Shown here one piece after another: positions 6,384-55,159 of a stretch of DNA of 64,000 nucleotides. The DNA is from a bacterium (GTDB taxonomy: Bacteria > Patescibacteriota > Patescibacteriia > Patescibacteriales > GWC2-42-12), in NCBI GenBank assembly GCA_030650415.1, contig JAUSEG010000005.1, positions 23,333 to 87,332 of the forward strand. Direction: 5' to 3'. How positions within the stretch are numbered: position 1 is the stretch's first letter; every line of letters starts with the position of its first letter. Under the pieces are notes generated by a model that saw only the letters and a list, made by a program, of their open reading frames with translations, was not told where the DNA came from and ran no database searches. The position numbers and the translations under genes are program-made.

Positions 6384-6434
6384 TTACCCCGTTAAATCCG
6401 GCGAAGCCGGAGCAAAGCTATTTAACGGGGTGAA
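6384..6434. repeat. Type-2 hairpin element (TTCACCCCGTTAAAT...ATTTAACGGGGTAAA) in the 5' leader
   Basis: On the minus strand the 3' arm ends 11 nt before the ATG at 6372. Same termini as 10244-10290, 12717-12916 and 55111-55159. Confidence 0.75.
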
Positions 6435-6483
6435 TTTTTATTTCTATATTATATCATAAATAAAAACCGTGTCAAAAACTCAA

Positions 6484-6512
6484 AGCCCCCCGCCACATTG
6501 TGGCGGGGGGCT
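6484..6512 (-). terminator. GC-rich hairpin terminator after the large surface-protein gene
   Basis: AGCCCCCCGCCA-CATTG-TGGCGGGGGGCT, a perfect stem with T/A runs on both sides. Confidence 0.7.
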
Positions 6513-6550
6513 TCTTAATCTATCCTAATTAAACCTTTCTAAAGTTTAAA

Positions 6551-9500
6551 TTAGTAAGATAACTTCGCGCCTATTACTTCAGAAACATTCAATAAGACAT
6601 TTGATACATCCGTACCGGTGCCATTATTGCCATTATAAACGAAACGGTAAGTCAGATCAGCAATCTTCGTCTGGACGAAGTCGCCGGACGCGTCTACGCC
6701 GCTAATATCGCCTTCAATGACGATAGTAACTTCGCCGTCCACATCCTCTGTGGTTCCAGATAATTGCGAGAAGGTAGAAGAGGCTGTTCCTGTACTACCA
6801 TCTTCTTGAACCGCGGTAGTCTTATTGCTGGAATCACCATCAATATAGACCTGGATATTATTCACGAAGACGCCGCTTGAGGTGGCAATGCTTAAGCCCA
6901 AGGTTACTAATCGCGCTTTTAGTTCAGTATTATCGCTGTTTCTGTTACTGCCGTTATTGAAGATGAATTTATACTTACCGATAATCTGATCATTGCCGTT
7001 AGATAGCGTTGTATTGGACATCGGATTAGTAATGGAGGTTAGGACTGAACCGTGAATAGTCGCGGTGGTAGAGGTGGCAACGCCCCACTCGGCGTATTCA
7101 CCGGCAGCCACACTGGCATCAGTATCTTCAACCAAAGTAATGTCATCGCCCAAATCTACGCCCACAGCGGTAACCGCGTCATCGGCCGATAGGCCGAGTT
7201 GAGTCAATTGAGTGCTGGAAGCTAAAGTATAGATTATGGTTTCCGCGTCATCGGCCGTAGCGGAAGGATCGCCTTCCACATTAATACCTCTAGCGGTTAC
7301 GCCAATGAAATATTCATGGACGTTATCCGCCGATAGCACTAAGTTCAAGTCGCTGAAATTGGCATCGCCGAGAGTGCTGACGCCTTTTGAAGCCACTAAG
7401 ACTTCATTCTTGTCATACAACTCAACGGATGCAATATCATCGGCTCTGGCTGTGCCCTGTTGGCCTAAGACTAAAGTCTTAACCTTAATCGGTTCATTAG
7501 CGGTGGTGAAAGTTAACTTGCCGAGATATTTATCTCCGGAAGTAATCTTACTGCCTGCTAAGAGGATCGTATTAGTATTAGACTTTAGATCCGTAACCGT
7601 CAGCTCAACTTTCAATGTACCGGCCGAAGCCAAAGTAAGGGTCCTGGAAAGAGTCGCGGCATTCTTTACGCTTTCCGCCACCGCGTTCGAGTCTTTATCC
7701 TGGGCGACTATGCTAGCCGCTACGCCATCCGCTGTAAGTCCGATAACTCCTGTAGGACTAAAGGTGGACGAGAAATCAGCTTTAACTTCTAAGGTCACGG
7801 TCTTACCGGCGGGAATTACTCTGTTAGTTGTGTCTAAAGAAGTAAAGTTGATATAACCAGCGGTTCCTGAAGCAGGTTCAACGATGCCACCGGCAACTGT
7901 CTTAACCAGCTTGTTGTCAACATAGAGCCGTAACTGGGAAATATTAGTATCGCTAAACGCGCTAGCGACAGTAGAAGTAGAGTGAATCTTAACCGAGGTT
8001 AAAGTAACCGCGGAAGACGCGCCCGCTTCTAAGCTGGCCGCGTAAACGACCACATCCTTAGCGCTCGGCACAATCGTCTTAGCTGTTAAGGCGGTTGTCT
8101 GCCAAGTTAAAGAGGCTGTTTTAACCGTAGCGATAGCGCTTGAAACTGATGTCGGGGTAATGCTGGATTGCAAGCTGGCGTCTGAATCATCGCCGCTAAT
8201 AGTAAAGCCGGTGCTCTTTAGAACAACCTGCAAAGTATCGCTATCAACGGCTGGATTGGTATCGTTCGTACCGGCTACATCTACTTTTATCTGATAAGTC
8301 TTGGTCACGCCCTTAACCAAACTGATTTCATCGGAATTGGTTAATTTGCAATAAGAGGCCGTTGTTGAACTGGCGATAGTTAAATCATAAGATGCGCCAG
8401 TGACCGTGTCTCTTAAGACCGCGTTATCAAGTTTAGTGCAAGATGGGTTTGTACCAGTGATATAAAAGCTATCTGCGCCAGCGCCTAACGCGGTAATGGT
8501 GGCATTTTCACCGGCTGAAAGAACTTTAACGGTAGCTAAAATCACGGCGTTATCGCCCGGCCTAACATCTTTAGACGGAGTAACGGTTTTATCCATATCA
8601 ATTGTAACATCACCGGCCGTTAAAGTAACGACAATGCCCTCGCTAACACCGTCTATATTCGCAAAATAGCTAGAACCAATTTCTATGCCATAACCATAAT
8701 CCTGGCCAGTGAAATATAAATCACCGGCTTCGTAAAAATACAAGTCAATGGTATTAGTGGTATTGCCAATGCCGATATCGCCATAAACTTCAACCGTGAT
8801 GGTGTCATTTTTAGCGATAACTTTATTGAAGCTGAAAGTAACGATCTTATCAACCAATTCGCCGCCCTTGACGACTTCATCGCCATCAATCACCACTCTC
8901 ATGTTGCCAACAATGCCGGCGGTATTGGTGCCGCCATTCTTCATGGCAAAGCCGGAGAAAATAACCGCTTCATTAGCCGCGGTTAAATCAAATTTGGCTA
9001 ATAAGACATTGTCTTCGCCGAAATCATTGGAGGTATCAGAAGTGCCAAGATTTGACATGGTAACCGTACCAATAGTTGAACTGGTAACTGCCTGAACATT
9101 ACCTCTAACCGGGAAAGAGCCGCTTACGGCCGCTCCATTAGTAGTAATGTCGCTAGCCGCGGCAATGCCTAAAGCAAAATTTCCCGATGTTTGGCCCGCA
9201 ACAATCGTGGCTTTGACCACTAAAGATTTAGTGGTTCCGGCCGCGACGACGATCGGTGTAGAAAAATTAAAGGTTGCTTCTTTATCGGAATTTATATTCT
9301 TGGCTGTTCCCACTTTGACGCCGTTATCATAGAAAGTAACGCTGTCAACATAAGTGGCCGTACCCAATTCAAAGGTTTTTAGCTTAATCGCACTAACGCT
9401 TACCGCGCCGTCGTTGGAAGCGGTTAAGTTAATCTTTAAGAACGAAGTCGGTGAACCGGCCGGGATAGTGGAGGCAGCCGCGGTGTCTGAAGCTAAGCTG

Positions 9501-10228
9501 ACGGTTAAGCCAGAGCCCGCGCCGATTGATCCGCCCGCGCCTGACGAAGTATCAGTTAGGGTGGCAACCGCGCCCGAGATGCTAGCGCCAACAACCGGTT
9601 TAGCGATCGTGGCGGTGATAACATCAGCCCATTTAAATCTGTTGGCTAAGAAAGCCGCTTCGGTAGCGATCTTTGAAGCTGTGGTATCAGCATTGATAAG
9701 ATAAACATCAGCTTCAGTGCCAAACTTCACTAAACTGCCCTGAGGATAAGAGGTCGCGCTGACTACGCTGGTAAGGGTAATGTAGTTGGTAAAGAAAGCG
9801 TCAGACACATCAATAATCCTCTTATTCCATTGTGATCCGAATAAAGTCGCGGCCGTCGCTTCATCAGGAACGCCCACTAAAGAGCCTCCGGCGACAACGG
9901 CGTAAACTTTCGGATTAGTAGTAATTTTAACTAATTTAGTACCCGGTCTAACGGTGACATTCTTACCCAGAGGATATGACTCTAACTCGCTTTGAGAAAT
10001 AGTCACAACGCTGGAGAAATCACTGTACCAGGAAAAATAAGTTGACTCATTAGGGAAAACATATCTCTTTCCGTCAGCGGCCAAGTAATAAACGGACGAA
10101 AGTCCGCTCATCTTGATTAAGTCACCGGCTGAAGCGTTGGCACTCACATTAGGAGCTACCACTACGCTCATTGATAAGACGGTAACGAAAATTACGCCTG
10201 CGGCAAAGATTTTCTTGAATCTTTCCAT
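6551..10228 (-). CDS. Very large secreted surface (S-layer-like/adhesin-like) protein
   Basis: Start moved to MERFKKIFAAGVIFVTVLSMSVVVAPNVSANA (signal peptide). About 1225 aa, rich in A/T/S/V/G and free of Cys. At least 5 divergent ~110-130-aa modules recur with the pattern ...V.LYD.....V......F.F.....I.AG.T....V.ADI. Confidence 0.7.
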   Translation of the reverse strand: MERFKKIFAAGVIFVTVLSMSVVVAPNVSANASAGDLIKMSGLSSVYYLAADGKRYVFPNESTYFSWYSDFSSVVTISQSELESYPLGKNVTVRPGTKLVKITTNPKVYAVVAGGSLVGVPDEATAATLFGSQWNKRIIDVSDAFFTNYITLTSVVSATSYPQGSLVKFGTEADVYLINADTTASKIATEAAFLANRFKWADVITATIAKPVVGASISGAVATLTDTSSGAGGSIGAGSGLTVSLASDTAAASTIPAGSPTSFLKINLTASNDGAVSVSAIKLKTFELGTATYVDSVTFYDNGVKVGTAKNINSDKEATFNFSTPIVVAAGTTKSLVVKATIVAGQTSGNFALGIAAASDITTNGAAVSGSFPVRGNVQAVTSSTIGTVTMSNLGTSDTSNDFGEDNVLLAKFDLTAANEAVIFSGFAMKNGGTNTAGIVGNMRVVIDGDEVVKGGELVDKIVTFSFNKVIAKNDTITVEVYGDIGIGNTTNTIDLYFYEAGDLYFTGQDYGYGIEIGSSYFANIDGVSEGIVVTLTAGDVTIDMDKTVTPSKDVRPGDNAVILATVKVLSAGENATITALGAGADSFYITGTNPSCTKLDNAVLRDTVTGASYDLTIASSTTASYCKLTNSDEISLVKGVTKTYQIKVDVAGTNDTNPAVDSDTLQVVLKSTGFTISGDDSDASLQSSITPTSVSSAIATVKTASLTWQTTALTAKTIVPSAKDVVVYAASLEAGASSAVTLTSVKIHSTSTVASAFSDTNISQLRLYVDNKLVKTVAGGIVEPASGTAGYINFTSLDTTNRVIPAGKTVTLEVKADFSSTFSPTGVIGLTADGVAASIVAQDKDSNAVAESVKNAATLSRTLTLASAGTLKVELTVTDLKSNTNTILLAGSKITSGDKYLGKLTFTTANEPIKVKTLVLGQQGTARADDIASVELYDKNEVLVASKGVSTLGDANFSDLNLVLSADNVHEYFIGVTARGINVEGDPSATADDAETIIYTLASSTQLTQLGLSADDAVTAVGVDLGDDITLVEDTDASVAAGEYAEWGVATSTTATIHGSVLTSITNPMSNTTLSNGNDQIIGKYKFIFNNGSNRNSDNTELKARLVTLGLSIATSSGVFVNNIQVYIDGDSSNKTTAVQEDGSTGTASSTFSQLSGTTEDVDGEVTIVIEGDISGVDASGDFVQTKIADLTYRFVYNGNNGTGTDVSNVLLNVSEVIGAKLSY

Positions 10229-10243
10229 AGATAAATTTTGTTT

Positions 10244-10290
10244 ACCCTGTGAAATCCCTACGGGATGCGTAGCATATTTCACAGGGTGAA
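10244..10290. repeat. Type-2 hairpin element in the leader of the surface-protein gene
   Basis: ACCCTGTGAAAT-CCCTACGGGATGCGTAGCAT-ATTTCACAGGGTGAA. It ends 15 nt upstream of the ATG at 10228. Confidence 0.75.
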
Positions 10291-10728
10291 TCCGGTTAAA
10301 TAATAAAATTATTTAACCTGGATGCTTGACTCGTTTTTTAAATTAAGATCTTGGCAAATCAACCGGAATCCCGCTCCCCCGCGAAAAAAATACGATTTTT
10401 CTGGCTTCGCCAGATCTGGCATAGCCAGACAATTTACGATTTTCGAATTTAGAATTTTAATTCGTAATTCGAAATTCATAATTCGTAATTCCTTCTGGGG
10501 GTTAGCTTGCTGATTTACCTCGTGGCTCGCGACGATCAATCGCGGAGCCGTATCCCGGGACTAGCCCGGGACTAGAAATTTAAAAAACAAGTTGATTAAT
10601 TAGATTGGCAAAGTCTCCATCGAAATGGATCGACCATTTATAACTTTACCGTAACCCGCTTAATGCGGATTAGAGAATTTCTCTCAATTAAGAGATAAAC
10701 TATCTAATCAACACTAATTGTTTAGTAT

Positions 10729-10874
10729 TGTCATTGCGGGCTTGACCCGCAATCCAGATTTAATTTTCAAAAACACATACTAAGAGACAAAACGTTTATA
10801 CTTTTAACTCCTGGATTCCGGCTTCGTCTGCCGGTAGGCAGACTCTCCGCCAGCTGGCGGAGGCCGGAATGACA
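10729..10874. repeat. Type-1 mosaic palindromic element
   Basis: TGTCATTGCGGG...GGCCGGAATGACA. Contains the modules ATCCAG/CTGGAT, CTGCCGGTAGGCAG and CCGCCAGCTGGCGG. Confidence 0.85.
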
Positions 10875-10876
10875 GT

Positions 10877-11860
10877 TTACTGTGTACTGCTCGCCGTCTC
10901 GCTCGCGCCTTCAACCTGACCGACTTCAGTCTGATTAATAACTTTGTTTATTTCTCCAAGCTTATCTATGGCACCGTTAAGATTTTTTTCATCCACTAGC
11001 TTTTCCGCTTCGTCAAGCATCTGACCGGCCTGCTGTGAGCCTGCCGAACCAGCCGAATTAGCGTTTTCCGCCGTAGAAGTGGCGGTGGCCTGCTGTGAGC
11101 CTGCCGAATCAGCCGCAATTTGGTTTTCTAAAATTGGCTTAGAGGTGCTAGCCACCGGCTCAACTATTGGCGTTGGTTTAATTTGCCCGTCTGCCTGTCC
11201 GGCCTGCCTGCCGGTAGGCAAGGTAGACCCGCCGACTGGCGTGGCCGATTCGGATATTTCCAGCCTTTGATTATTCTTACCTAAATTAGCGCCAAAAACT
11301 TCTGATTCGGCTTCTTTTGACTTGGCCTGATCGGCGGCAGCCTTAATGACGGACAATCGATTTTTTACTTGGCTGATTTCTTTTTTAAAATTCTGCGATA
11401 GTTTTTCCAGCTTGTCATTATTAACTGTAGCGGTTTGACCCTTATCTTCTAAAACCTGAATCATTTCCTTAGCGCGATTAGTGGCAAACTCAACGCCTAG
11501 TTTGGCCTTATCTTTTTCATCAAAGGTCATAGCGAACTGCGCCCGCTCGCTGATAATTTTCGCGATATATAATGAATCGCCGGGTTTAGTATTTTTTGAG
11601 GCGTAAACGCCGCCGATGCCAACCACTAAAATTAAAACACTGGCTATAGAGGCTAGCCAAACCGGTTTAGCGAAGCTCATTAAAATTTGGCGCGGCATAA
11701 TACTCTCCCAAACTATTCTAATATCCGACTTCGGTTCGAGCTCCGGCTGACCGGCGGAAATTTGGCTAAACAAAATATCCCGATATTCTTTCTGCCAATC
11801 ATTATCGGGTTTAATGCTTTTTAAATTATTTAATTTTTTGAGAAGTTCTTGATCAGTCAT
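10877..11860 (-). CDS. Putative anti-sigma/membrane-anchored partner of the ECF sigma factor (DUF5667-like)
   Basis: Lies directly downstream of the sigma gene. Has a single TM segment (VWLASIASVLILVVGIGGVYA) followed by a helical PGDSLYIAKIISERAQF... region. The C-terminal low-complexity part includes repeat-derived LPTGRQAGQ and a 31-bp internal duplication. Confidence 0.45.
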   Translation of the reverse strand: MTDQELLKKLNNLKSIKPDNDWQKEYRDILFSQISAGQPELEPKSDIRIVWESIMPRQILMSFAKPVWLASIASVLILVVGIGGVYASKNTKPGDSLYIAKIISERAQFAMTFDEKDKAKLGVEFATNRAKEMIQVLEDKGQTATVNNDKLEKLSQNFKKEISQVKNRLSVIKAAADQAKSKEAESEVFGANLGKNNQRLEISESATPVGGSTLPTGRQAGQADGQIKPTPIVEPVASTSKPILENQIAADSAGSQQATATSTAENANSAGSAGSQQAGQMLDEAEKLVDEKNLNGAIDKLGEINKVINQTEVGQVEGASETASSTQ

Positions 11861-11867
11861 ATAGTAT

Positions 11868-12091
11868 TGTCATTGCGAGCCGCCCCTGTAATCTGGGCGG
11901 CGCGGTCATCGCTACGCGAGATCTGGCGTAGCCATGACAATCTCTGGTTCAATAGCACAAAACTTAACTATTTTTTTAATGCTCAACACCAATCTAAATT
12001 TATTTTAAAGTAGCATTTCTTAATTTCTTGTTCTTGCCAACTTACCAGAGATTGCTTCGTCTCCGCCAGCTGGCGGATCCTCGCAATGACA
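11868..12091. repeat. Type-1 mosaic palindromic element (long form)
   Basis: TGTCATTGCGAGCCGCCCCTGTAATC...CTCGCAATGACA. Contains GCTACGCGAGATCTGGCGTAGC, AATCTCTGGT/ACCAGAGATT and CCGCCAGCTGGCGG. Confidence 0.85.
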
Positions 12092-12096
12092 GGAAT

Positions 12097-12678: not shown

Positions 12679-12716
12679 TTAATTATACGTAAAAATTAGA
12701 GTATTGTTACAGTTTA

Positions 12717-12916
12717 CCCCGTGAAATAGCTTCGCACCCCGTTAAAACGGGGATTTCATGGGGTGAACCCCGTGAAATTGCTTCGCACCCCGTTAAAACG
12801 GGGATTTCATGGGGTGAACCCCGTGAAATTACTTCGCACCCCGTTAAAACGGGGATTTCATGGGGTGAACCCCGTGAAATTACTTCGCACCCCGTTAAAA
12901 CGGGGATTTCACGGGG
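12717..12916. repeat. Tandem array of four 51-bp type-2 hairpin units
   Basis: Units start at 12717, 12768, 12819 and 12870. Each unit is CCCCGTGAAATnnCTTCGCACCCCGTTAAAACGGGGATTTCA(T/C)GGGG(TGAA). There are no spacers. The array lies about 38 nt upstream of the sigma-factor ATG. Confidence 0.9.
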
Positions 12917-13062
12917 CAAATAAAAAAATAATCGTAGTAAACGAAAATAATTTGCTAAAATAAGCTATTTTTTTCTCATGCGGGATTCCGTCCAGCTGGA
13001 GAATAAATATATTGATTATAATAACATATAGATAAGCGAAAAGCAATAAAAACTCTCACAAT

Positions 13063-13186
13063 TGTCATTCTGGCCTACGAGCCGGAATCCAGAGTTCAAT
13101 AGCAAAGACGTTAATCATTCAACGTTCTTTAATAATTCACATTCCTACGGCTCACTCCTGGATTGCGGGTCAAGCCCGCAATGACA
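13063..13186. repeat. Type-1 mosaic palindromic element
   Basis: TGTCATTCTGGCC...CCCGCAATGACA with GGAATCCAG / CTGGATTGC inner arms. Confidence 0.8.
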
Positions 13187-13237
13187 TGTGGGTGTCTTGC
13201 ATTATTAAAAATAATGTGCAAAAATGTAGGTAACTTA

Positions 13238-13389: not shown

Positions 13390-13396
13390 TCCTAAA

Positions 13397-13705: not shown

Positions 13706-13708
13706 TTA

Positions 13709-16956: not shown

Positions 16957-17269
16957 AATTTTTATGGGGTTGTTGCCAAATGCTCTTTCGGATATAAATT
17001 TTCACAATTTCGAGGAAATTTTTTATAAAATTTTTGAGGCGATATATTATATCGGCGAGGAAATTTTAGATAAAAATTTACCGAAATTTGGAAATTTAGG
17101 CCGAATACGGCATTCGGCGACGACCCCCGGTTACCCCTGCTTAAGCAGAGGAGTTATTATAAATTGTTAATAAAGACTTATATCTATTAGACATTATACA
17201 CCATCTAATAAAAAAAGCCAATAAATCCGCACATCTATGTATAGGTGTGGGGATAAATACAATGCTTTG

Positions 17270-17340
17270 CACGGGATGTAGGAATCGAACCTACGCTAGA
17301 GGATTTGGAGGCCTCTGTACTACCATTATACTAATCCCGC
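17270..17340 (-). tRNA. tRNA-Trp (CCA)
   Basis: Hand-folded 71-nt cloverleaf: GCGGGAT/ATCCCGT acceptor, anticodon loop CTCCAAA, T arm GTAGG-TTCGATT-CCTAC, discriminator G. There is one C-U mismatch at 31:39. CCA is not encoded. Confidence 0.85.
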
Positions 17341-17350
17341 ATGCGCAACT

Positions 17351-17456
17351 GGCCGTCGGAGGAATGTTGGTTTTGAGCGCATACGAAATTGTAGTATTTT
17401 TTAAAGAAAATGCCCAAATTTCGTCTAAGCGAAAAACCAACATTCCTCCGACGGCC
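17351..17456. repeat. Long hairpin element with conserved core (family also at 24681-24828)
   Basis: Perfect 24-bp arms GGCCGTCGGAGGAATGTTGGTTTT / AAAACCAACATTCCTCCGACGGCC. The inner core, GAGCGCATACGAAATTGT...AATGCCCAAATTTCGTCTAAGCG, is shared with the second copy. Confidence 0.8.
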
Positions 17457-17495
17457 AAACTACCCTAATCAATATTTTTAAGCGCGTAAACACTT

Positions 17496-23693: not shown

Positions 23694-23914
23694 TGTCATT
23701 GCGAGGAGCGAACACAGATCCCTCTCCGCCAACTGGCGGATCGGGACAAGCTTCGCAACCTCTTTGCGTTGTCATTGCGAGGAGCTTCGGCGACGAAGCA
23801 ATCTCACGAATGTCTATGCTCCATTAAATCTCGCCATTATTATATTATTATTTTTCTTCGCCGTTCGTGAGATTGCCGCGCTCTCCGCCAGCTGGCGGAT
23901 CGCTCGCAATGACA
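23694..23914. repeat. Two abutting type-1 mosaic palindromic elements
   Basis: Copies start at 23694 and 23770 (TGTCATTGCGAGGAGC twice). They contain CCGCCA(A/G)CTGGCGG twice and AGCAATCTCACG / CGTGAGATTGC, and end in CGCTCGCAATGACA. Confidence 0.85.
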
Positions 23915-29805: not shown

Positions 29806-29893
29806 TGTCATTCCCGAAGCCGTAGGCTGTCGGGAATCCAGGGGCGCGCGGCATAAACATATTTTCTGGATTCCCGCCTGCGCGGGAATGACA
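29806..29893. repeat. Type-1 mosaic palindromic element
   Basis: TGTCATTCCCGAAGCC...GGGAATCCAGG...CTGGATTCCCGCCTGCGCGGGAATGACA. Confidence 0.85.
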
Positions 29894-29951
29894 AGAAAAA
29901 ATATTGCATCGCTCCCGAAAACTCTCAAAATTACCCGTAATGACAATGCAG

Positions 29952-36756: not shown

Positions 36757-37188
36757 TTAAAACTTCAAACCGCCAAGCCTGGCGCCTTCAGCCAAAGCCT
36801 TAACTCGGCCATGATATTTATAACCGTTGCGGTCAAACACCACTCGGCTAATACCCTTAGCTACGGCTTTCTCGGCAATCAATTTACCTAATTCCAAGCT
36901 AATAGCGGTTTTCTTACCTATCTGTCCGGTAGGCAGGCCTTTAGCTTTTACCCCGTTAAATTCCCGATTACTATCGGGACCGGCGGAGCCGGATTTAACG
37001 GGGTGAGCTTCGCCGGCGCCCACGCTAACTAAGGTCCTGCCAATTTCATCATTTATAATTTGGGCATAAATGCCGCGATTGGATCTGAAAACGGTTAGTC
37101 TTGGGCAAACGGCTGTGCCGCTGACCTTGGCTCTGACTCTGCCCTTGCGCCTAAATCTTTTAGCTTGTTTAATTTTATTTATATCCAT
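36757..37188 (-). CDS. rplR: 50S ribosomal protein L18 with repeat-derived internal insertion
   Basis: [17 protein letters not shown] and [26 protein letters not shown]. About 22 extra residues (..[28 protein letters not shown]..) are encoded by the repeat modules. Confidence 0.9.
36922..37006. repeat. CTGTCCGGTAGGCAGG module plus a type-2 hairpin element inside rplR
   Basis: TACCCCGTTAAAT-TCCCGATTACTATCGGGACCGGCGGAGCCGG-ATTTAACGGGGTGA, with the same termini as the leader elements at 6384 and 12717. Confidence 0.8.
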
Positions 37189-38721: not shown

Positions 38722-39360
38722 TTAATTAATTTTTTTCTTATTCTTTTTAATTTTTTTAAATTCGCTTTCATCCGCGTTAAACGGGAAACCGATCAATCTG
38801 AATAGCTCCAAACCTTCTTCATGGGTTTTAGCGGTTGTGCTAAGGCAAATCCCCAAACCGTGAACATTCTCGGTTTCATCAGCTTTAATCTCCGGGAAAG
38901 CCACGTGTTCTTTAAAACCGACTGATAGATTACCGGTATTATCAACCTGCTTAGAGCTAATGCCTCTAAAATCCCTAATTCTCGGAAAGGTTATATTTAC
39001 CAGCTTTTCCACAAAATCAAACATTCTTTTATTGCGCATGGTTACGGCTACGCCGATCACCATGCCTTTTCTGGTCTTAAAAGCCGAAACTGATTGCTTG
39101 GCTTTAGTTAAAATTGTTTTCTGTCCACTGATTCTTTCTAAACTCGAAACTACGCCATCAATAAAAGCTTTGTCTTTAGCGTTTTTCCCCACGCCTGAAT
39201 TAAGCACCACTTTGGTTAAGCGCGGCACAGCCAGCTGGTTTTTATAACCAAATTTTTCTGCCATTTTCGGGATTATTTCTTTTTTATATCTTTCTTTTAA
39301 ATTTACCCCGTTAAATAAATTATTATCTTTATTTGATTTTTTTTCTATTTGATCTGGCAT
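38722..39360 (-). CDS. rplE: 50S ribosomal protein L5 (with terminal extensions)
   Basis: VPRLTKVVLNSGVG, FDFVEKLVNITFPRIRDFRG and synteny. Confidence 0.9.
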   Translation of the reverse strand: MPDQIEKKSNKDNNLFNGVNLKERYKKEIIPKMAEKFGYKNQLAVPRLTKVVLNSGVGKNAKDKAFIDGVVSSLERISGQKTILTKAKQSVSAFKTRKGMVIGVAVTMRNKRMFDFVEKLVNITFPRIRDFRGISSKQVDNTGNLSVGFKEHVAFPEIKADETENVHGLGICLSTTAKTHEEGLELFRLIGFPFNADESEFKKIKKNKKKIN

Positions 39361-39415
39361 ATTTACTCATAAAACCCGGCTAAATATTAAAAATCTAACG
39401 GGGTGAATATAATAA

Positions 39416-42456: not shown

Positions 42457-42603
42457 ACTTACTTTATTCTATCAAGTTAAAATTTAATGGCCGTAGAGTT
42501 CTACTCGCTATTAAATTTTAACTTGATACATTATATTTTTTGTTTATCCCCTTGAGGGGGAAAATATTAAAAACTTTTTCTAAAAAAGTTTTTAAAGTTT
42601 TAT
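42457..42603. repeat. Structured spacer element, copy 1 (rpsS-rplV); copy 2 at 54478-54638
   Basis: The two copies share an identical 41-nt core AAAATTTAATGGCCGTAGAGTTCTACTCGCTATTAAATTTT, plus ATCCCC..GGGGGAA and the palindrome AAAACTTTTTCTAAAAAAGTTTT. Confidence 0.85.
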
Positions 42604-44525: not shown

Positions 44526-45275
44526 TTATTTATACCTTTCTTCTAGCTTCTCAACAACGGTTCTTGCAATAATTAAATTCTTATATTTCAACAGGTCTAC
44601 TATATTTATATTATTCATGTTAATCAGCAAAACGCCAGGTAAGTTTTTTGCCGAATTGGTTAATTTCTCATCAGTCTTTTCGACGATAATCAAGATACTG
44701 CGTTTTTTCGCTGATTTACCGGTTTTAGTTTTCTTTGGCTTGGCTTCAACTTGTCCGGTTAAATTCATGGCCTGCTTAACTTCAGCTGAACCGGAATTCA
44801 ATGGAGTAAAAATTTTATTTTCTAAATTAGCTAAAATCTGATTAAAAAATTTGGTTTTAAATTCCGTTATGGAAAATTTATCTAAAACGACTAAATGATC
44901 GCTGGCCAGTTTATCGGATAAAACCATAAGCATGGCGCCCTGCTTCATCTTTTTATTTATCCGCATTTTAAAATTCCGGTCGTTTCTCGGACCGAAGGTT
45001 ACGCCGCCACCCTTCCAAATCGGTGATCGGCTTGAACCGTGGCGCGCTCGGCCCGTGCCTTTTTGCGCCCAAGGTTTTTTACCGCCGCCCCTGACTTCGC
45101 TTCTGGTCTTAGTATGAGCGATAACTTTTCTCTCGTTGGCCATTTGCGTAACAACCGCCTGGTGCACTAGAGCTTCATTAACTTTCACGCCAAAAACCTT
45201 TGAAGAAAGTTCCATCTCTCCGGCAGCTTCCGCGTCTTGGTTGTAGATTTTTATTTTAAGGCTCATATTTTGCAT
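44526..45275 (-). CDS. rplD: 50S ribosomal protein L4
   Basis: GGGKKPWAQKGTGRARHGSSRSPIWKGGGVTFGP. The first track ATG (45281) lies in the repeat terminus, so the start is set to the next ATG. The exact start is uncertain. Confidence 0.88.
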   Translation of the reverse strand: MQNMSLKIKIYNQDAEAAGEMELSSKVFGVKVNEALVHQAVVTQMANERKVIAHTKTRSEVRGGGKKPWAQKGTGRARHGSSRSPIWKGGGVTFGPRNDRNFKMRINKKMKQGAMLMVLSDKLASDHLVVLDKFSITEFKTKFFNQILANLENKIFTPLNSGSAEVKQAMNLTGQVEAKPKKTKTGKSAKKRSILIIVEKTDEKLTNSAKNLPGVLLINMNNINIVDLLKYKNLIIARTVVEKLEERYK

Positions 45276-45392
45276 TGTCATTCCCGCGAAAGCGGGAATC
45301 CAGGAGGAAGCAGTATAAACATTGTTAATAATTTACCGTGTTTGTGCCTCTGCCTCCTGGATTCCCGACAGCCTGCGGCTTCGGGAATGACA
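45276..45392. repeat. Type-1 mosaic palindromic element (downstream flank of the inserted ORF)
   Basis: TGTCATTCCCGCGAAAGCGGGAATCCAGGAGGAAGCAGTATAAAC...TTTGTGCCTCTGCCTCCTGGATTCCCG...CGGGAATGACA. Confidence 0.85.
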
Positions 45393-45479: not shown

Positions 45480-45794
45480 TTAGCCGATGGTCACGCAAGG
45501 AACGCCGCTACTTTCTGACTTAACCTTACCCTCCTTCTTCGACAATCTCTTGATGAAATTGGCAACCGCCTTGGCTATGCGTATTTGTTCCGCCTTGGCG
45601 CGGTATTCATCAGACTTACGCGCCCTTATTCTCGGATCACCGTAGGTCACCATCTCTGAATCTTCTTCATAGGCCACGGCCGCGGCTTCCAATTCTCTCA
45701 ACTCTTGCTTCAGCCTCCTGCAACGACCGGATAACCTAATGGCCGTTTGCTGCAACCACGCCTTGTCAATAACTACCATCGTTTGTGTTTTCAT
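45480..45794 (-). CDS. Hypothetical 104-aa protein inserted between rplC and rplD
   Basis: An ATG at 45794 is preceded by ACGGAGATCAAAC (GGAG Shine-Dalgarno). Visibly more G+C-rich than its neighbours. Predicted helical and charged (RELEAAAVAYEED..RAKAEQIRIAKAVANFIKRL). No motif recognised. Confidence 0.55.
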   Translation of the reverse strand: MKTQTMVVIDKAWLQQTAIRLSGRCRRLKQELRELEAAAVAYEEDSEMVTYGDPRIRARKSDEYRAKAEQIRIAKAVANFIKRLSKKEGKVKSESSGVPCVTIG

Positions 45795-45838
45795 GTTTGA
45801 TCTCCGTGTTTTTGTTTCTGTTGTTTTATTGTTTGATT

Positions 45839-46026
45839 TGTCATTCCCGCGAAAGCACTCTGTTTTCTTTCTCTGCGCCGAGGTCGGCACCGAGGAGCAA
45901 TCCAGGAGGAAGCAGTACAAACGATCCTTATCGTTTACTATATTTGTGCCTCTGCCTCCTGGATTCTCATGGCTACGCCAGATCTCGCGTAGCGATGACC
46001 GACAGGCTTCGCCTTCGGGAATGACA
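45839..46026. repeat. Type-1 mosaic palindromic element (upstream flank of the inserted ORF)
   Basis: Same orientation and same inner core (ATCCAGGAGGAAGCAGTACAAAC...TTTGTGCCTCTGCCTCCTGGATT) as 45276-45392, plus a GCTACGCCAGATCTCGCGTAGC module. Confidence 0.85.
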
Positions 46027-46034
46027 AAATAATA

Positions 46035-46850: not shown

Positions 46851-46875
46851 ATCTAATAAATTATTCTCTTTTTAC

Positions 46876-46955
46876 TGTCATTCCCGCGCAGGCGGGAATC
46901 CAAAAACGGATTTTTTACTTCTCACTCCTGGATTCCCGCCTTCGCGGGAATGACA
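46876..46955. repeat. Type-1 mosaic palindromic element
   Basis: TGTCATTCCCGCGCAGGCGGGAATCCA...CTGGATTCCCGCCTTCGCGGGAATGACA, in the 356-nt rpsJ-rplC spacer. Confidence 0.85.
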
Positions 46956-47206
46956 AGAGAAAAATATTTAATGGTTATTCAAAGCTCTAAATATAAAAAA
47001 ACCGGTCTTCAACAAACCAGTCCAAAACCGCTTTAACACGGTGGCTATTACAAATTATTTTCCAAAAAAGGAATTTAATTTTGACTCTTGGTTTGATTGA
47101 ATTTTACCTCGCTCTAAATATTAACTTTTATTCAAACACTTTCCCTAAAGGAGTTGTCTAAACAATCATTAATATAATATATAAAAATACTAACTAATAT
47201 ATTCTA

Positions 47207-47578: not shown

Positions 47579-47670
47579 GTTGCTTAAATTTTAAAATTAA
47601 AATTGTAAATATCTAAATATATTCTACCCTTTTATTAAATAAAAACTGTATTAAAAACTGTTACCCTTGG

Positions 47671-47946: not shown

Positions 47947-48038
47947 AAATTTATTTAACCGCAAATCTGCAAATTCACTACGAATAAAACAAACAGTATT
48001 CGTAATATTCGTAGCTGATTTGTAGATTTGTGGAATGT

Positions 48039-49226: not shown

Positions 49227-49244
49227 ATTTATTTTTCTACGGCT

Positions 49245-49268
49245 CCCCCACCAACTTGTAGGTGGGGG
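49245..49268. other. GC-rich hairpin immediately upstream of the tuf start
   Basis: CCCCCACC-AACTTGTA-GGTGGGGG. Same stem family as the terminators at 6484 and 16539, but on the minus strand no U-run follows it. Confidence 0.5.
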
Positions 49269-49367
49269 ATTTTTGCCTGATATTTATTAAAATAGGCTAC
49301 CAGCCGTCTTTATTATTTATTTAAATTAATTATTTTTTTGACAAATTTAGTTTGTGGATTACACTTG

Positions 49368-49949
49368 TTATACCCCCGCAGTAAGACGTTCCTTCATAAT
49401 TATCAAACTAGTCACTAATAGCTCTTCACTATTTACTAAATCAGTATTAAATATAATTTCCACATAATGTGGGGAGAGTTCCTTCCTTGTACAAAACAAT
49501 TCTCCTTCTCTGTAGGTCTGACTTGTTAATAATAAATTGTTGACTTGGGTAGTGTACCTAGAACTATTTATTTGAAAAATTCTACTATTTTTATCAATAT
49601 TAATTTCATAAACTTTCTCACTCAAAATTAACTTATCTTTTAAAAAAACTTCACCATTATTTTTAACAAAACTTCTTTGATACTCACCATTTTCTGCTCC
49701 ATCCAATTGCTTGAAACCAATGTCCTTAATCTTGCCCCAAGCTTCAAAAATACGACTGTCGCTTAATTTAATTTTTGTGCGACCCGCTGAGATTTGACTT
49801 CCATAAAAATACAAAATTTTTGCCCAATGGCGACTTTCTGGCTGATGCTTATTAAATAGAGACTTATCCTTGACGCGCCCAGAAATCTGTACGGTTAAAG
49901 AAATGCCAGCAATAATAACAATAATAATAAATGCAATTAATCCTGCCAT
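49368..49949 (-). CDS. Hypothetical membrane-anchored protein (very AT-rich)
   Basis: N-terminal TM segment MAGLIAFIIIVIIAGISLTV. The rest is N/K/I-rich with no recognised motif. Confidence 0.45.
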   Translation of the reverse strand: MAGLIAFIIIVIIAGISLTVQISGRVKDKSLFNKHQPESRHWAKILYFYGSQISAGRTKIKLSDSRIFEAWGKIKDIGFKQLDGAENGEYQRSFVKNNGEVFLKDKLILSEKVYEINIDKNSRIFQINSSRYTTQVNNLLLTSQTYREGELFCTRKELSPHYVEIIFNTDLVNSEELLVTSLIIMKERLTAGV

Positions 49950-49986
49950 AAAATATACGAATAGAAAACACTCACAATTTGTGTCT

Positions 49987-50403
49987 TTAAAACGCCAAGT
50001 CTTCCAGGTATTGCCGGTCTTCTTCTATTATTTCCTCGGCGTTGATTTTTCTCTTTGAAGGAATCGACCAGCTCTTATTGAATTTCCTGATCATTTTCTC
50101 CCGCGCCTCTTCATGCTCTTCGCGGCCTTCCTTCTTCGGCAGTTCGGCCAAATGATCCAGGTCCGTGTCCAGGTCGTTATCTAAATTCTGCTCGCTTTTC
50201 CAAATTGCAATATCACGATTTATTTTATCAAGTAATTCATCTTCTGTCAATCCGCGGACTTCGCTCTTGCCTAAAACCAGATTTTCATAATCTTTTAGCG
50301 CCAAAACCACAAAAGTATTGTCTGGTTTAGAGCTATCAAAAATAATCAGCCGATCGCCGGTTTTCTTGACTAAATTAATGGCTTTTTGCAATTGATCATG
50401 CAT
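49987..50403 (-). CDS. Hypothetical acidic protein; N-terminus weakly Phd/YefM-antitoxin-like
   Basis: VKKTGDRLIIFDSSKPDNTFVVLALKDYENLV resembles the beta-beta-alpha core of YefM-type antitoxins. The C-terminus is acidic and charged. The resemblance is by eye only. Confidence 0.4.
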   Translation of the reverse strand: MHDQLQKAINLVKKTGDRLIIFDSSKPDNTFVVLALKDYENLVLGKSEVRGLTEDELLDKINRDIAIWKSEQNLDNDLDTDLDHLAELPKKEGREEHEEAREKMIRKFNKSWSIPSKRKINAEEIIEEDRQYLEDLAF

Positions 50404-50477
50404 AGGACTTTATCTTAAATTTAATTAAGAACACCTATATTATATATTTTATCTTAACAAATTGTCAAACAAAGCAT

Positions 50478-50664
50478 TGTCATTGCGAGGAATCCTATTT
50501 CATTTTGTCATCCCCGCGCAGGCGGGGATCCAGGTTAAAAACGAAAAAATTTCGGTTTACTGAAATAATGGCAAAACAAAATGTCCGTGTCGCTGAACTC
50601 TGGATTCCGGCTCGCCTTCGGCTTAAAGGCCGGAATGACAAAAAGACGGTCGCTCGCAATGACA
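50478..50664. repeat. Nested type-1 elements (one copy inside another)
   Basis: Outer TGTCATTGCGAGG...GTCGCTCGCAATGACA. Inner TGTCATCCCCGCGCAGGCGGGGATCCAGG...CTGGATTCCGGC...GGCCGGAATGACA. Confidence 0.85.
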
Positions 50665-50699
50665 GAAGCTTTGTATTTTCAATTGAAAATTAAAAATTT

Positions 50700-52787
50700 T
50701 TACTTCTTCCCCTCGTTTTTTTCCCCAATAATCTCTTCGGCGACATTTCTCGGTACTTCGGAATAATAAGCGAATTCCATGCTATAGCTGGCTCGGCCCT
50801 GGGTCATTGATCTTAGCTGAGTGGCGTAACCGAACATTTCTGATAGCGGAACTTTAGCTTTTATAAATTTAACCATGGCCCGGTCGCCCATTTCTTCAAT
50901 CTGCGCCCGCTTAGAATTCAAATCTCCGATAACCTCGCCCATAAAATCCTCCGGGGTTACGGCTTCAACTTTCATAATCGGCTCGAGAATTATCGGCGCG
51001 GCATGACGGCAAGCTTCCTGGAAAGCTATGGAACCGGCAATTTTAAAGGCCGCTTCGGACGAATCGACATCATGATAAGATCCGTCTAAAACCGCCACTT
51101 TAATATCGACAATCGGATAACCGGCTAAAACGCCTCTGTCCAGAGCTTCTTTAACGCCCTTTTCCACAGCCGGAATAAATTCGCGGGGGATTGATCCGCC
51201 CTTAACTTCATCAAGGAATTCAAAACCCTTGCCCTGCTCATTCGGTTCAACTCTAAGCCAGCAATGGCCGTATTGTCCATGGCCGCCCGATTGCTTAATA
51301 TATTTTCCTTCGGCTTCGGCGGATTTTTTAATGGTTTCGCGATAAGCGACTTGCGGTTTACCGACGTTAGCTTCAACTTTAAATTCCCGTTTCATGCGGT
51401 CAACGATAATGTCCAAATGAAGCTCGCCCATGCCCTTAATAATCGTCTGCATGGTTTCTTCATCACTGACCACTCTAAAAGTTGGATCTTCTTCTGATAA
51501 TTTTGATAAGGCCATGCCCATTCTTTCTTGATCGCCCTTGGTTTTCGGTTCAATGGCGATAGAAATAACCGGCTCAGGGAAAGTAATTGATTCTAGAACT
51601 AACGGCCGGCTTTCATCGCATAAAGTATTACCCGTAGTAGTGGCTTTTAAGCCGATTACGGCCGCAATTTCACCGGCATAAACTTCCTGAACTTCTTCTC
51701 TGTGATTCGCATGTAATCTAACAATGCGGCCGATTCTTTCCCGGTTGCCGGTAGAAGTATTTAAAAGATAAGAGCCGGATTTTAAAACTCCGCTATAGAC
51801 TCTGATAAAACAAAGCTTGCCGACGTAGGGATCGGTCGCAATCTTAAAAGCCAGAGCCGCGAACGGCTCGGTATCGGACGGCTTAACCACAATGAGCCTT
51901 TCTTTATCGTCCGGATCAAAACCGGTAATGGCCGGCACTTCGAGGGGCGAAGGCAAGTATTCAATAACCGCGTCTAAGAGCAGCTGCACGCCTTTATTTT
52001 TTAAAGCGCTGCCGCAAAGCACCGGCACAATTTTATTATTTACCACCGCTTGACGCAGGACTCTTTTTAAATCGGCGACGGCGATTTCTTCGCCGGCCAA
52101 ATATTTATTCATTAAAACTTCGTCATTTTCGGCAATCGCCTCAACTAGCTTAGAGCGATACTCTTCAACTTTAGCTTTCATGTCCGCCGGCACTTCCCTA
52201 TCCTCCCACTTAGTACCCAGCTCGTCTAAAAAAAAGCGCGCTTTTCTTTCAAATAAATCTATCATGCCTTGGAACTTATCTTCGGCGCCGATCGGCAGCT
52301 GAACCGGGTGGGCATGCTTAGTCAATCTTTTATGGATTGAGGCTAAATCTTTATAAAAATCCGCGCCGGTGCGATCCATTTTATTAATGAAAGCAATGCG
52401 CGGCACTTTATATTTATCAGCCTGATGCCAAACGGTTTCCGATTGCGGCTCGACTCCGGCCACGCCGTCGAATAACACTACGCCGCCGTCTAAAACACGC
52501 AAAGATCTTTCCACTTCAGCGGTAAAATCCACGTGCCCGGGGGTATCGATTAAATTGATGCGGCAATCTTTCCAAAAACAAGTGGTAGCCGCGCTCGTTA
52601 TAGTTATACCGCGTTCCTGCTCCTGCTCCATCCAATCCATTTCCGCCGTGCCTTCATGCACTTCGCCGATCTTATGCTTTTTTCCGGTATAAAAAAGAAT
52701 CCGCTCGCTGACCGTGGTTTTACCCGCGTCAATATGAGCGATAATGCCGATGTTGCGTGTTTTTTCTAAACTATATTCTCTAGGCAT
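50700..52787 (-). CDS. fusA: Elongation factor G
   Basis: [17 protein letters not shown] and NKMDR motifs. 695 aa. Confidence 0.97.
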
Positions 52788-52798
52788 AATTTAATATT

Positions 52799-52862
52799 TG
52801 TCATTCCCGCGCAGGCGGGAATCCATTTCCTCTGTCATTGCGGCCTCCGAGCCGCAATCCAG
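52799..52862. repeat. Two left-hand type-1 termini in tandem
   Basis: TGTCATTCCCGCGCAGGCGGGAATCCA followed by TGTCATTGCGGCCTCCGAGCCGCAATCCAG. Confidence 0.75.
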
Positions 52863-52908
52863 AATTTTTAATTTTGTAATTTTAAATTTTTAAACAATTC
52901 TCAATGAT

Positions 52909-53958
52909 TCAATTTGTAAATTTGAATGTTGCTAAGATTTGCTTTTGTAAATCATTATCTTCATCAATATAATATAAATCAGCTGGGCATGAACCAAAAC
53001 TAATTACAAGGGTTTTATCGCTAACTGCAGTCTTAACTATTGTCGCCAAGCAACCAGCATCGCCCATCTTATACTTATAGCCAGCATTATTACCGACTTT
53101 TATTGTTTCAAATTTTTCAATTTTTCCATACATATCTTCAATATTATTTGGATCTAATTTTTTATCTGTTAAAGTTAAAGATAATGTGCCACGTTTACTA
53201 TTAAAATAAACATAATTTTCTTCTTTTCCAGCAATACTAAAAACTGTACCGGGGTATTTAAATGAAACCCCGCTCAATTTACTATACTGCAACCATTGGC
53301 TATCTACGACTTTTGGTTTTACCCAATCTTCGTTGATTTTAAAAGTTTTCAGTATCTCCTGTGATATTTTATCATCCTTGAGAAAATTAATTAAAAATAC
53401 TGTTCCTAGTTTATTGGCAGTAAAAATAAAAGTTCTTTCTTTTTCTATTTGCCATCCCCCAGTCTGCCATTGGAAACTTCCTATTATATTAAAAGTAAAA
53501 GCATCTCTACCATCAACTTTTGTAGTAAGGAGGTTTGAAATAAATTTATTTTTAATATTTGGATTATTGTCATCTTTGTTAATCTGCCAAATTTCCTGTG
53601 CATATTCATCTATAGGTTGCTTTACTGCTTCCACGGTTAATACTTCAAAAGAGGAACGATTAACAGGAGTTTTATATTGATAGCCATATTTTTCATTATA
53701 ATAAATTTGCCAATCGTTTGTATCAACGACTTCGGGCTCTTCGGTCAGGTTTTTAGTAATAGCTTGATTATTTTTCTCAAAATTATCGTTAATTTTCTGC
53801 AAATTTTTTACTGCCTGATTTTCAATCTGCTTGCTTTGCTGAATTTGCCCTTGCCATTTTATTGTGCCAAAAGCAATCACGCCAATTACTAAAACAGCTA
53901 CTAGAATAGCTATTAATGCAAAACCTCTTTGTTTAAAAATTTCTTTGTTCGTTTTCAT
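52909..53958 (-). CDS. Hypothetical exported protein with pilin-like N-terminus
   Basis: KQRGFALIAILVAVLVIGVIAF resembles a prepilin leader (G/F cleavage site plus hydrophobic helix) but lacks Glu at +5. The remainder is N/K-rich with 2 Cys near the C-terminus. Confidence 0.45.
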   Translation of the reverse strand: MKTNKEIFKQRGFALIAILVAVLVIGVIAFGTIKWQGQIQQSKQIENQAVKNLQKINDNFEKNNQAITKNLTEEPEVVDTNDWQIYYNEKYGYQYKTPVNRSSFEVLTVEAVKQPIDEYAQEIWQINKDDNNPNIKNKFISNLLTTKVDGRDAFTFNIIGSFQWQTGGWQIEKERTFIFTANKLGTVFLINFLKDDKISQEILKTFKINEDWVKPKVVDSQWLQYSKLSGVSFKYPGTVFSIAGKEENYVYFNSKRGTLSLTLTDKKLDPNNIEDMYGKIEKFETIKVGNNAGYKYKMGDAGCLATIVKTAVSDKTLVISFGSCPADLYYIDEDNDLQKQILATFKFTN

Positions 53959-53972
53959 ACCTACTTCTCCCC

Positions 53973-54000
53973 CTGGATTCCCGCCTGCGCGGGAATGACA
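53973..54000. repeat. Right-hand half of a type-1 element
   Basis: CTGGATTCCCGCCTGCGCGGGAATGACA. Confidence 0.75.
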
Positions 54001-54009
54001 AAAGGTGTA

Positions 54010-54477
54010 TTATCTCGCGAAATGCGCGAAGGCTTTATTGGCTTCGGCCATGCGGTGAACTTCGGCGCGTTTTTTAACGGCCGCGCCCTCGCCTTTCGAA
54101 GCATCAATTATTTCATCAGCCAATTTCTCCGCCATGGGTTTTCCCCGCTTTGCTCTGACCGCGGTAATCAGCCAGCGACAGCCTAAAGTAAAACGGCGTT
54201 CACCTCTGACCTGAAAAGGAATCTGATAGTTAGCGCCGCCGACGCGTCGGCCGCGAATTTCCAATAAGGGACTCACCTGCTTTAAAGCTTTGTTAAAAAC
54301 ATGCCTCGGATCCTGCTTAGTTCTTTCTTTAATAATTTCAAAGCAAGTGTAGACGATTTTCTGCGCTACGGTTTTTTTGCCTCGCTCCATGATGTAATTA
54401 ATAAACTTAGCGATATCCGGATCGTTAAATTTTACATCAAACTGAATTTTTCTCTTGGTGACTGGTTTGCCTCTCAT
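54010..54477 (-). CDS. rpsG: 30S ribosomal protein S7
   Basis: RRVGGANYQIPFQVRGERR, AHFAR C-terminus and synteny. Confidence 0.93.
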   Translation of the reverse strand: MRGKPVTKRKIQFDVKFNDPDIAKFINYIMERGKKTVAQKIVYTCFEIIKERTKQDPRHVFNKALKQVSPLLEIRGRRVGGANYQIPFQVRGERRFTLGCRWLITAVRAKRGKPMAEKLADEIIDASKGEGAAVKKRAEVHRMAEANKAFAHFAR

Positions 54478-54638
54478 ACTTTATTATTATATTAAGTAAA
54501 AATTTAATGGCCGTAGAGTTCTACTCGCTATTAAATTTTTACTTGATTCATTATATTTTTTGAATATCCCGCTTGGCGGGAAAAATATTATTTATCCCCG
54601 GAGGGGGAAAACTTTTTCTAAAAAAGTTTTTAAGGTTG
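54478..54638. repeat. Structured spacer element, copy 2 (rpsL-rpsG)
   Basis: Carries the same 41-nt core and the AAAACTTTTTCTAAAAAAGTTTT palindrome as 42457-42603, plus an extra ATCCCGCTTGGCGGGAAAA hairpin. Confidence 0.85.
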
Positions 54639-55058
54639 TTATTTCTTAGGTCTTTTAGCGCCATAGCGGCTGCGGCTCTGCTTTCTGCCTTCTACGCCCT
54701 GGGTATCGTAAACGCCTCTGATGATTTTATATCTGACGCCCGGCAAATCCTTAGTCCTGCCGCCCTTTAATAAAACGATGGAGTGCTCTTGCAGGTTATG
54801 GCCTTCACCCGGAATATAGGCGGTAACTTCCATGCCGTTTGATAATCTGACGCGGGCGATTTTTCGTAAAGCCGAGTTCGGTTTTTTCGGCGTAGTAGTA
54901 GTAACTTTAACGCAAACTCCGCGTTTAAAAGGCGAACCCTTAGGCAATTCGGTTCTCTTCCGATGCAGAGTGTCCAGCGTTGATTGCAGCGCCGGTGATT
55001 TGGTTTTTGTCTTATTGGAATGTCTGCCCTTGCGGACCAGTTGATTAATAGTAGGCAT
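54639..55058 (-). CDS. rpsL: 30S ribosomal protein S12
   Basis: Start moved to [22 protein letters not shown] motif. Confidence 0.95.
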
Positions 55059-55110
55059 AGTAAATAAAAAGTAAAAAAACAAACCCGTATAGGCGGGATA
55101 TTGTAGAATT

Positions 55111-55159
55111 TACCCTGTGAAATCCGGCTCTGCCGGTGCATAGCAATTTCACGGGGTGA
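55111..55159. repeat. Type-2 hairpin element in the rpsL leader
   Basis: ACCCTGTGAAAT-CCGGCTCTGCCGGTGCATAGCA-ATTTCACGGGGTGAA. It ends 52 nt upstream of the rpsL ATG. Confidence 0.75.

Follow-up and report, generated by a model that had tools for sequence, protein, structure and literature searches.

A short palindromic repeat in a Falkowbacteria-like genome and in at least ten bacterial phyla is probably a small mobile insertion element

A short palindromic repeat was found in nine units at six loci of a 64-kb stretch of DNA (the window) from an organism whose S12 and L18 proteins mark it as a Falkowbacteria-like patescibacterium. We consider it probable that this repeat is a small, non-autonomous, mobile insertion element, likely selfish, and that it represents a new type within the class formed by repetitive extragenic palindromes (REP), miniature inverted-repeat transposable elements (MITE) and Rickettsia palindromic elements (RPE). 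A conserved regulatory role is not supported. All units were found on the minus strand, the strand of nearly all genes of the window, with the termini TTCACCCYGTKAAAT...ATTTMACRGGGTAAA in one shared polarity; on the plus strand the element has the form TTTACCCYGTKAAAT, interior, ATTTMACRGGGTGAA. The 15-nt arm had 19 matches (with up to two mismatches) in the window, compared with 0.68 expected from shuffles and a shuffle maximum of 3. The genes near the copies encode a 66-aa open reading frame (ORF) with CxxC motifs, a 1225-aa protein, an extracytoplasmic function (ECF) sigma factor and the ribosomal proteins S12, L18 and L5 (Table 1). A preliminary description of this DNA had placed such termini in the leaders of several genes, always in the same polarity relative to the downstream gene, and had noted one copy inside rplR. 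The termini were located within 1–3 nt of the positions given there, all window copies read TTCACCC...GGGTAAA on the gene strand, the rplR copy was present, and the gene labels (zinc-ribbon/CxxC, giant protein, sigma, rpsL, rplE and rplR) held.

Five of the six window sites could be tested against close relatives, and all five were empty there. The closest L18 proteins were 117 aa long and had no insert, and at the DNA level the site GAAG^TAAAG had become GAAG(CTCACCCC...GGGG)TAAAAG in the window. In an alignment, other L18 proteins had, at the same codon, one copy, copies with different interiors, two to three tandem copies or remnants; in solved L18 structures, the insert maps to a loop bounded by residues 58 and 66. 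At the rplX–rplE junction, the empty site of a relative (L117) read ...TATA^TGAATTTAAAGG, where A^TG marks the start of rplE. In the window, this old ATG was lost to the element, and the new internal ATG adds a 19-aa N-terminal extension (MPDQIEKKSNKDNNLFNGV) to L5. What had been described as a partial copy before rplE is in fact the 5' arm of this complete copy. Three relatives with 91–92% identical S12 (L123–L125) had no element in the rpsL leader (site AAT^TAAATTT), and the site orthologous to the 10241 copy was empty in L126 (CTGAA^TAAACAA). The region upstream of the sigma gene was empty in five relatives, and in a further one (L129) it had a single copy, interrupted by a member of another repeat family. 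The only locus related to the 6383 site was found in L040, whose sequence ends exactly at the junction. Conversely, two in-frame copies of L040 correspond to sites that are empty in the window, in its glycosyltransferase gene (1071-2321) and its Wzy_C/TPR gene (2299-4524), and L060 and L063 provided a further pair of an empty and a filled site. These sequence comparisons indicate that copies are gained or lost between close relatives and that tandem arrays are built.

Two further observations were made at the same genes. Only some close relatives shared a second, independent in-frame indel of 21 bp in rplR (about 36916-36936; LPTGQ(I/A)G; CTGCCTACCGGACAGATAGGT), which may be a further small insertion element. 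In a Saccharibacteria MAG (metagenome-assembled genome; L115, about 5818-5875), an independent copy abuts rpsL, with the element's last A serving as the first base of the ATG; elements may land repeatedly in rpsL leaders.

Nine pairs of empty and filled sites were compared. In seven of these, T(A/T/G)AA was already present on the gene strand of the empty site, and the insert brought TTCA, arm, interior and arm. The comparisons suggest an insertion rule by which the element is placed immediately 5' of a pre-existing T(A/T/G)AA. The pair L061/L083 gave an alignment too complex to interpret and was outside the seven fits. Because the target 4-mer pre-exists, the ends of the element are asymmetric (TTTA...TGAA or TTCA...TAAA in 56 of 72 cleanly ended copies) and neighbours in an array share a single 4-mer, as adjacent units of the array at 12713-12920 did. 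The borders were sharp: past the 15-nt arms, the flanks were unconserved except for a pyrimidine after ...GGGTGAA. No consistent direct repeat that could be a target-site duplication was found at any offset in 93 copies, nor in the direct comparisons of empty and filled sites.

The element can also stand in the opposite orientation at the same place. In three relatives with 98% identical S12 (L120–L122), the rpsL-leader element was the reverse complement of the window copy, with 47 of 52 positions identical after reverse-complementing versus 31 of 52 directly, while the 40-nt upstream flank was 100% identical. The order of the short and the long inner hairpin relative to the polarity defined by the target was random (9:7 in our own tally). 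The flip and the random hairpin order together indicate that the element itself is symmetric and that its polarity is set by the side of the target.

The unit consists of two 11-nt arms (CCCYGTKAAAT and ATTTMACRGGG) flanking a variable interior, and is about 45–70 bp long, occasionally about 105–130 bp. An additional 4-mer belongs to each unit and reads TTCA on the gene strand and TGAA on the opposite one. With the 4-mer, the arms are 15 nt long, and positions 4–15 were paired in nearly all of 141 copies, i.e. terminal inverted repeats (TIRs) are present; the asymmetry of the stem at position 3 (T.G or C.A) arises from the target 4-mer. The interior had been said to differ in every copy. Its sequence does vary, but normally it forms two adjacent small hairpins: exactly two, with at most one unpaired base at the junction, in 61 of 140 distinct interiors compared with 0.1 in shuffles. 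The predicted fold is a T-shaped three-way junction of one long outer stem and two small hairpins, possible on either DNA strand or in RNA. For the window copies, the DNA folding energy was −14 to −25 kcal/mol (z −4.6 to −8.2), about equal for the two strands; the 6383 copy had −17.5 kcal/mol (z −5.4).

Several features bear on whether this structure is maintained in DNA or in RNA. The preliminary description had proposed covariation in the stems as a check. In 20 copies that had been pre-selected for folding, compensatory changes were indeed seen at 13 of 25 pairs; as many as four pair types occurred, and hardly any pair was broken. The pre-selection makes the count lean towards structure. 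A strand-specific signal was absent: G.U pairs in the interior were symmetric between the strands (42/1272 vs 40/1279), and T.G and C.A cases at position 8 were about equally frequent (12 vs 10 in 141 copies) and without link to polarity. The loops of the inner hairpins were mostly 3 nt (C-NNN-G), and the arms keep their sequence despite being fully paired. Together, the symmetric G.U usage, the equal position-8 cases, the conserved paired arms and the 3-nt loops point to a DNA-level palindrome, and nothing points to strand-specific selection on RNA. G.U wobble pairs had also been considered as an indicator of the folding strand, with the window copies indicating the plus strand, and this was ruled out by the symmetry in 141 copies.

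The lengths of the copies are compatible with survival inside genes. Total length was 1 mod 3 in 75 of 143 copies, compared with 35 and 33 in the other two classes; a copy of this length adds a multiple of 3 bp and can thus survive in frame, as in L18, L5 and others. One reading frame through both arms never has a stop codon. About 16 copies were within long ORFs, most of them reading HPVKS...FN(G/R)V, and nearly all had TTCA...T(A/T)AA on the coding strand. Since neither polarity puts a stop codon into that frame, the polarity bias inside genes looks mechanistic rather than selected. Subfamily expansions mean that the copies are not fully independent.

An exact-pattern scan of one genome per species of the Genome Taxonomy Database yielded at least 116 loci. 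The hosts among the matches listed belonged to at least ten phyla, and all were MAGs or single-amplified genomes. They included many Patescibacteria lineages, Bacteroidota, Cloacimonadota, Omnitrophota, WOR-3, Desulfobacterota, Thermodesulfobacteriota, Gammaproteobacteria, Calditrichaceae, Ignavibacteriaceae, Stahlbacteria and Gracilibacteria. The interiors were grouped into phylum-specific subfamilies, a pattern that speaks against mis-binned contaminants. The density was patchy, with six loci in the 64 kb of the window and two in 473 kb of contigs from relatives related through the sigma gene. Among 2.9 million viral contigs, a single one carried a copy; it encoded a terminase-like ORF, judged by sequence, and no enzyme candidate, although no family search was made on it. 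Collections of sequenced plasmids and phages gave no real matches. In Rfam, only two tRNAs were found at the gathering threshold, E-value scans around two copies gave noise, and no family matched the element. Full-text literature searched with the exact arm sequences and several keyword sets returned nothing relevant. The family is apparently undescribed so far.

If the repeat is an insertion element, its mobilisation would act on DNA and in trans, by an enzyme that would read the perfectly paired, sequence-conserved arms. The anatomy of the element makes a single-stranded hairpin intermediate plausible, handled in an HUH-like manner as in IS200/IS605, REP-RAYT and the inverted terminal repeats (ITRs) of parvoviruses, with the TGAA tail pairing with the target TTYA. 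The location of copies past transcription starts and before start codons would then reflect target preference and tolerance of insertions. An inserted element would be co-transcribed, and a stable stem-loop in leaders may change mRNA stability or translation gene by gene; effects on single genes are possible through a 5' stem-loop, RNase III processing or a Shine–Dalgarno-like GGGG followed by TAAA. A more specific reading is an undescribed cross-phylum transposition system that uses T-shaped single-stranded DNA hairpins, a conserved HUH- or Xer-like enzyme, TGAA–TTYA targeting, ITR-like flipping and preferential insertion at opened transcription starts. This we put forward only tentatively, and in its full form it is doubtful.

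The placement of the copies, on which the preliminary description had based a function, was tested with crude ORF calls. The strand reading TTTA...TGAA was antisense to overlapping ORFs in a ratio of 18:3 and to both flanking ORFs in a ratio of 14:6. On the TTCA...TAAA strand, 9 of 63 oriented copies ended −1 to 13 nt before an ORF starting with ATG, and 16 of 63 within 50 nt; the same distance windows on the opposite strand contained 0 and 3 copies, respectively. Of random intergenic RTAAA sites, 4.5% and 11% fell into these windows (p about 0.002 and 0.001). RTAAA outnumbered TTTAY twofold in the 13 nt preceding ATGs; with a general 2:1 polarity bias added, this ratio can account for most of the 9:0 asymmetry. 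The biases in polarity and start proximity are real, but their size is modest: about three times the level of random target sites. They extend beyond the window, being present among the at least 116 loci of other genomes in several phyla. Within the window, GC skew was negative on the plus strand throughout, so that the polarities of replication and transcription are confounded. At four of six detectable promoter-like sites, the −10 box was 11–13 nt before the copy. This was the case for the copies at 6383 (13 nt) and 55109, which follow strong promoter-like sites and whose stem-loop would therefore lie near the 5' end of the mRNA, and two copies in other phyla had the same 11-nt spacing as the 55109 copy. 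A promoter carried by the element itself was rejected by inspection, as its −35 box would lie in the variable interior. A displaced Shine–Dalgarno sequence was likewise rejected, with GGA just upstream in only 2 of 15 start-proximal copies.

Such placement could mean that the repeat acts in cis, as an RNA element of 5' leaders (a stem-loop stabiliser, an RNase III site or a translational operator) under selection. The shared polarity relative to genes, the enrichment just upstream of ATGs, the spacing from the −10 box and the very stable fold all speak for it, and GGGG or AGGG followed by TAAA, 4–13 nt and ATG could mimic a ribosome-binding site. We nevertheless regard it as unlikely, because the same sites are empty in close relatives and the element is inverted in relatives with 98% identical S12. 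The array also lies upstream of the sigma promoter-like site, other copies lie in coding regions and after stop codons, the order of the inner hairpins is random, G.U usage is symmetric, and no Rfam family matches. Furthermore, a fully paired stem that is recognised in RNA does not usually keep its sequence. The placement is non-random, as the preliminary description had held, but the function that it preferred over random MITE insertion is not supported, given the empty sites, the flip and the in-frame copies.

It is very unlikely that the repeat serves a conserved host protein as a dispersed DNA site for binding or recombination, kept for chromosome organisation in the way of REP/BIME with gyrase and IHF or of an Xer/dif half-site. 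Such a site would be in keeping with 11-nt arms that hardly vary across phyla next to variable interiors, and with tandem junctions that form palindromes of arm, 4 nt and arm. The motif TGTTAAAT in the 11-nt arm presumably recalls the XerD arm of dif; we take this likeness, and one to parS, as leads only. The density of copies, however, differs greatly between relatives, start codons and coding sequence are disrupted by copies, no associated gene was found, and a host function would not require copy lengths compatible with the reading frame. A MITE of the ordinary kind, descended from an insertion sequence with a DDE transposase and the same TIRs, would account for the terminal repeats, small size, many copies and patchy distribution, but is highly improbable: target-site duplications were lacking, about 1.3 Mb of fetched DNA contained no longer element with these ends, and plasmid and phage collections gave no matches.

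Some observations weigh against the repeat being a mobile insertion element. No transposase, HUH enzyme or recombinase was found among the window ORFs in Pfam scans, no enzyme candidate was found in ORFs between paired copies, and no long autonomous element with the same ends was detected in the fetched DNA when unpaired or long-spaced arms were searched. As no enzyme was found, mobility is argued from presence and absence of copies alone, and deletion instead of insertion may explain some of the empty sites. The sigma site fits the insertion rule only with a flip after insertion, and one L040 site is also compatible with a TTAA duplication. The polarity is opposite to the lagging-strand model of IS608, if the 4-mer is taken to be 5' of the cut. 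Finally, the threefold excess of start-codon proximity over the target-site null and the regular spacing from the −10 box could reflect selection for function.

Several known systems resemble the element in part. IS200/IS605 elements insert next to a 4–5-nt target via single-stranded DNA, with a strand bias. The element has in common with them and with REP/REPIN sequences (RAYT, HUH Y1) the short hairpins, the lack of target-site duplication and a tetranucleotide beside the hairpin, and a specific target without duplication was found here too, in the seven of nine sites with a pre-existing T(A/T/G)AA. It differs in that its ends pair with each other instead of forming one hairpin per end, and in that arrays are direct rather than inverted doublets. 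Its ends are TTYA and TGAA instead of the GTAG/CGTC foot tetranucleotide of REPs; separate subterminal hairpins with a Y1 transposase were not seen, the inner hairpins being variable, and neither the window nor the DNA between paired copies yielded a RAYT or TnpA gene. The ITRs of parvoviruses such as adeno-associated virus (AAV) are T-shaped DNA hairpins with one long stem and two small palindromes, and occur in ‘flip’ and ‘flop’ orientations. They are, however, the ends of a linear viral genome, about 125–145 nt long and processed by the viral Rep, whereas the element is a dispersed chromosomal repeat, and the likeness to the AAV ITR is in shape and inversion only. Integron attC sites (RYYYAAC ... 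GTTRRRY) were rejected, as the box order is reversed here (GTTAAAT ... ATTTAAC innermost) and no integrase was found in the window.

RPEs (described in part in PMC10969869) are palindromic, occur in frame in unrelated genes, where they are translated as extra surface loops, as well as between genes, and are present or absent between relatives; the element is alike in this, if its predicted in-frame inserts are translated. In-frame insertion with a conserved encoded peptide was found in about 16 copies and in the L18 alignment. RPEs are about 100–150 bp long, restricted to Rickettsia and probably unrelated in sequence. The family described here is shorter (45–70 bp) and T-shaped, occurs in at least ten phyla and uses a defined 4-mer target that it does not duplicate. 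Correia elements of Neisseria (CREE) lie immediately upstream of genes, are co-transcribed as hairpins that are cut by RNase III, and have been reported to invert in place (PMC10969869). The gene-upstream position and the in-place inversion are common to both; the 100–155 bp length, 26-bp TIRs, TA duplication, IHF site and promoters of Correia elements were not seen here.

Table 1. Copies of the element and other features of the window (positions in the window; all features on the minus strand where a strand is given).
Feature	Position	Strand	Remarks
Element copy, 52 bp	6383-6434	−	10 nt before ATG 6372 of the 66-aa CxxC ORF (6172-6372)
Sigma-70-type consensus promoter-like site	6448-6475	−	TTGACA-16-TGnTATAAT, 12/12 matches; just upstream of the 6383 copy
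Terminator-like hairpin, 15 bp	6482-6514	−	Precedes the promoter-like site 6448-6475
Element copy, 50 bp	10241-10290	−	12 nt before ATG 10228 of the 1225-aa protein
ECF-type promoter-like site	12682-12710	−	TGTAACA-N16-CGTATAAT; conserved in relatives
Tandem array, 4 units	12713-12920	−	12713-12767, 12764-12818, 12815-12869, 12866-12920; 51-bp period
Element copy inside rplR (36757-37188)	36947-37007	−	57-bp in-frame insertion encoding 19 residues
Long element copy, 106 bp	39302-39407	−	rplX–rplE junction; includes the rplE start codon (new ATG 39358-39360)
Element copy, 52 bp	55109-55160	−	rpsL leader; 50 nt before ATG 55058, 11 nt past −10
rpsL promoter-like site	55172-55200	−	TTGACC-17-TAAATT, TG-extended; kept in relatives with and without the element
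Second hairpin family	29866-29901, 45268-45303, 46869-46963, 50499-50533, 52792-52825, 53973-54008, 55970-56005		
Second hairpin family, further sites	4650-4685, 10729-10757, 13158-13186, 23770-23805		

The surroundings of some copies had features of their own. The array at 12713-12920 had been taken for part of the sigma leader. Although it ends 34 nt before the ATG of the ECF sigma gene (12678), it abuts the −35 box of the conserved ECF-type promoter-like site and thus lies upstream of that site, not within the leader. Only 3 nt separate the end of this site's −10 box from the presumed sigma ATG, which would make the mRNA leaderless unless the true start codon is further downstream. The 1225-aa protein downstream of the 10241 copy had no Pfam match. 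At rpsL, the promoter-like site is not part of the element, as it is kept in relatives that have no copy. The promoter regions at 6435-6475 and 55161-55200 were alike (TTGACnCGGTTTTTATTT...), with 77% identity over 109 nt including the element; this probably represents a shared promoter style, because relatives lacking the element also keep the rpsL promoter region. A hairpin followed by a T-run (CCCGnnnnnnCGGGTTTGTTTTTTT; 55071-55097, minus strand) lies between the rpsL promoter-like site and the ATG. It was kept in all six relatives that were compared, whether or not they carry the element, and resembles a leader terminator or attenuator.

Other repeats were also observed. A second, more abundant family of hairpins (TGTCATTCCCGCGnnnGCGGGAATCCAGG and TGTCATTGCGAGGAGC...) occurs between many genes of the ribosomal-protein cluster; it is the family that interrupts the element copy in L129, and we presume that it resembles the dRS3-type repeat of Neisseria. 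A segment of about 135 nt is repeated with 88–97% identity at 42464-42599 and 54484-54637, in intergenic regions of the same cluster. An inverted repeat of 51 nt (17350-17457; 82% complementary, 6-nt loop) adjoins tRNA-Trp (17269-17340). ORFs at 45480-45920, 49368-50403 and 52909-53958, among the ribosomal-protein and elongation-factor genes, had no Pfam match.

The element has consequences for the annotation and reading of these genomes. Gene callers are misled, with ORFs extended through the element, and essential genes are rewritten, with 19–40 residues added to L18 and the start of L5 replaced. The distance to start codons and the polarity bias can come from the choice of target, and alone are no evidence of regulation. 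The nearly invariant ends across phyla imply an undescribed conserved mobilising activity or repeated horizontal spread, and the element could mark recent divergence in uncultivated lineages.

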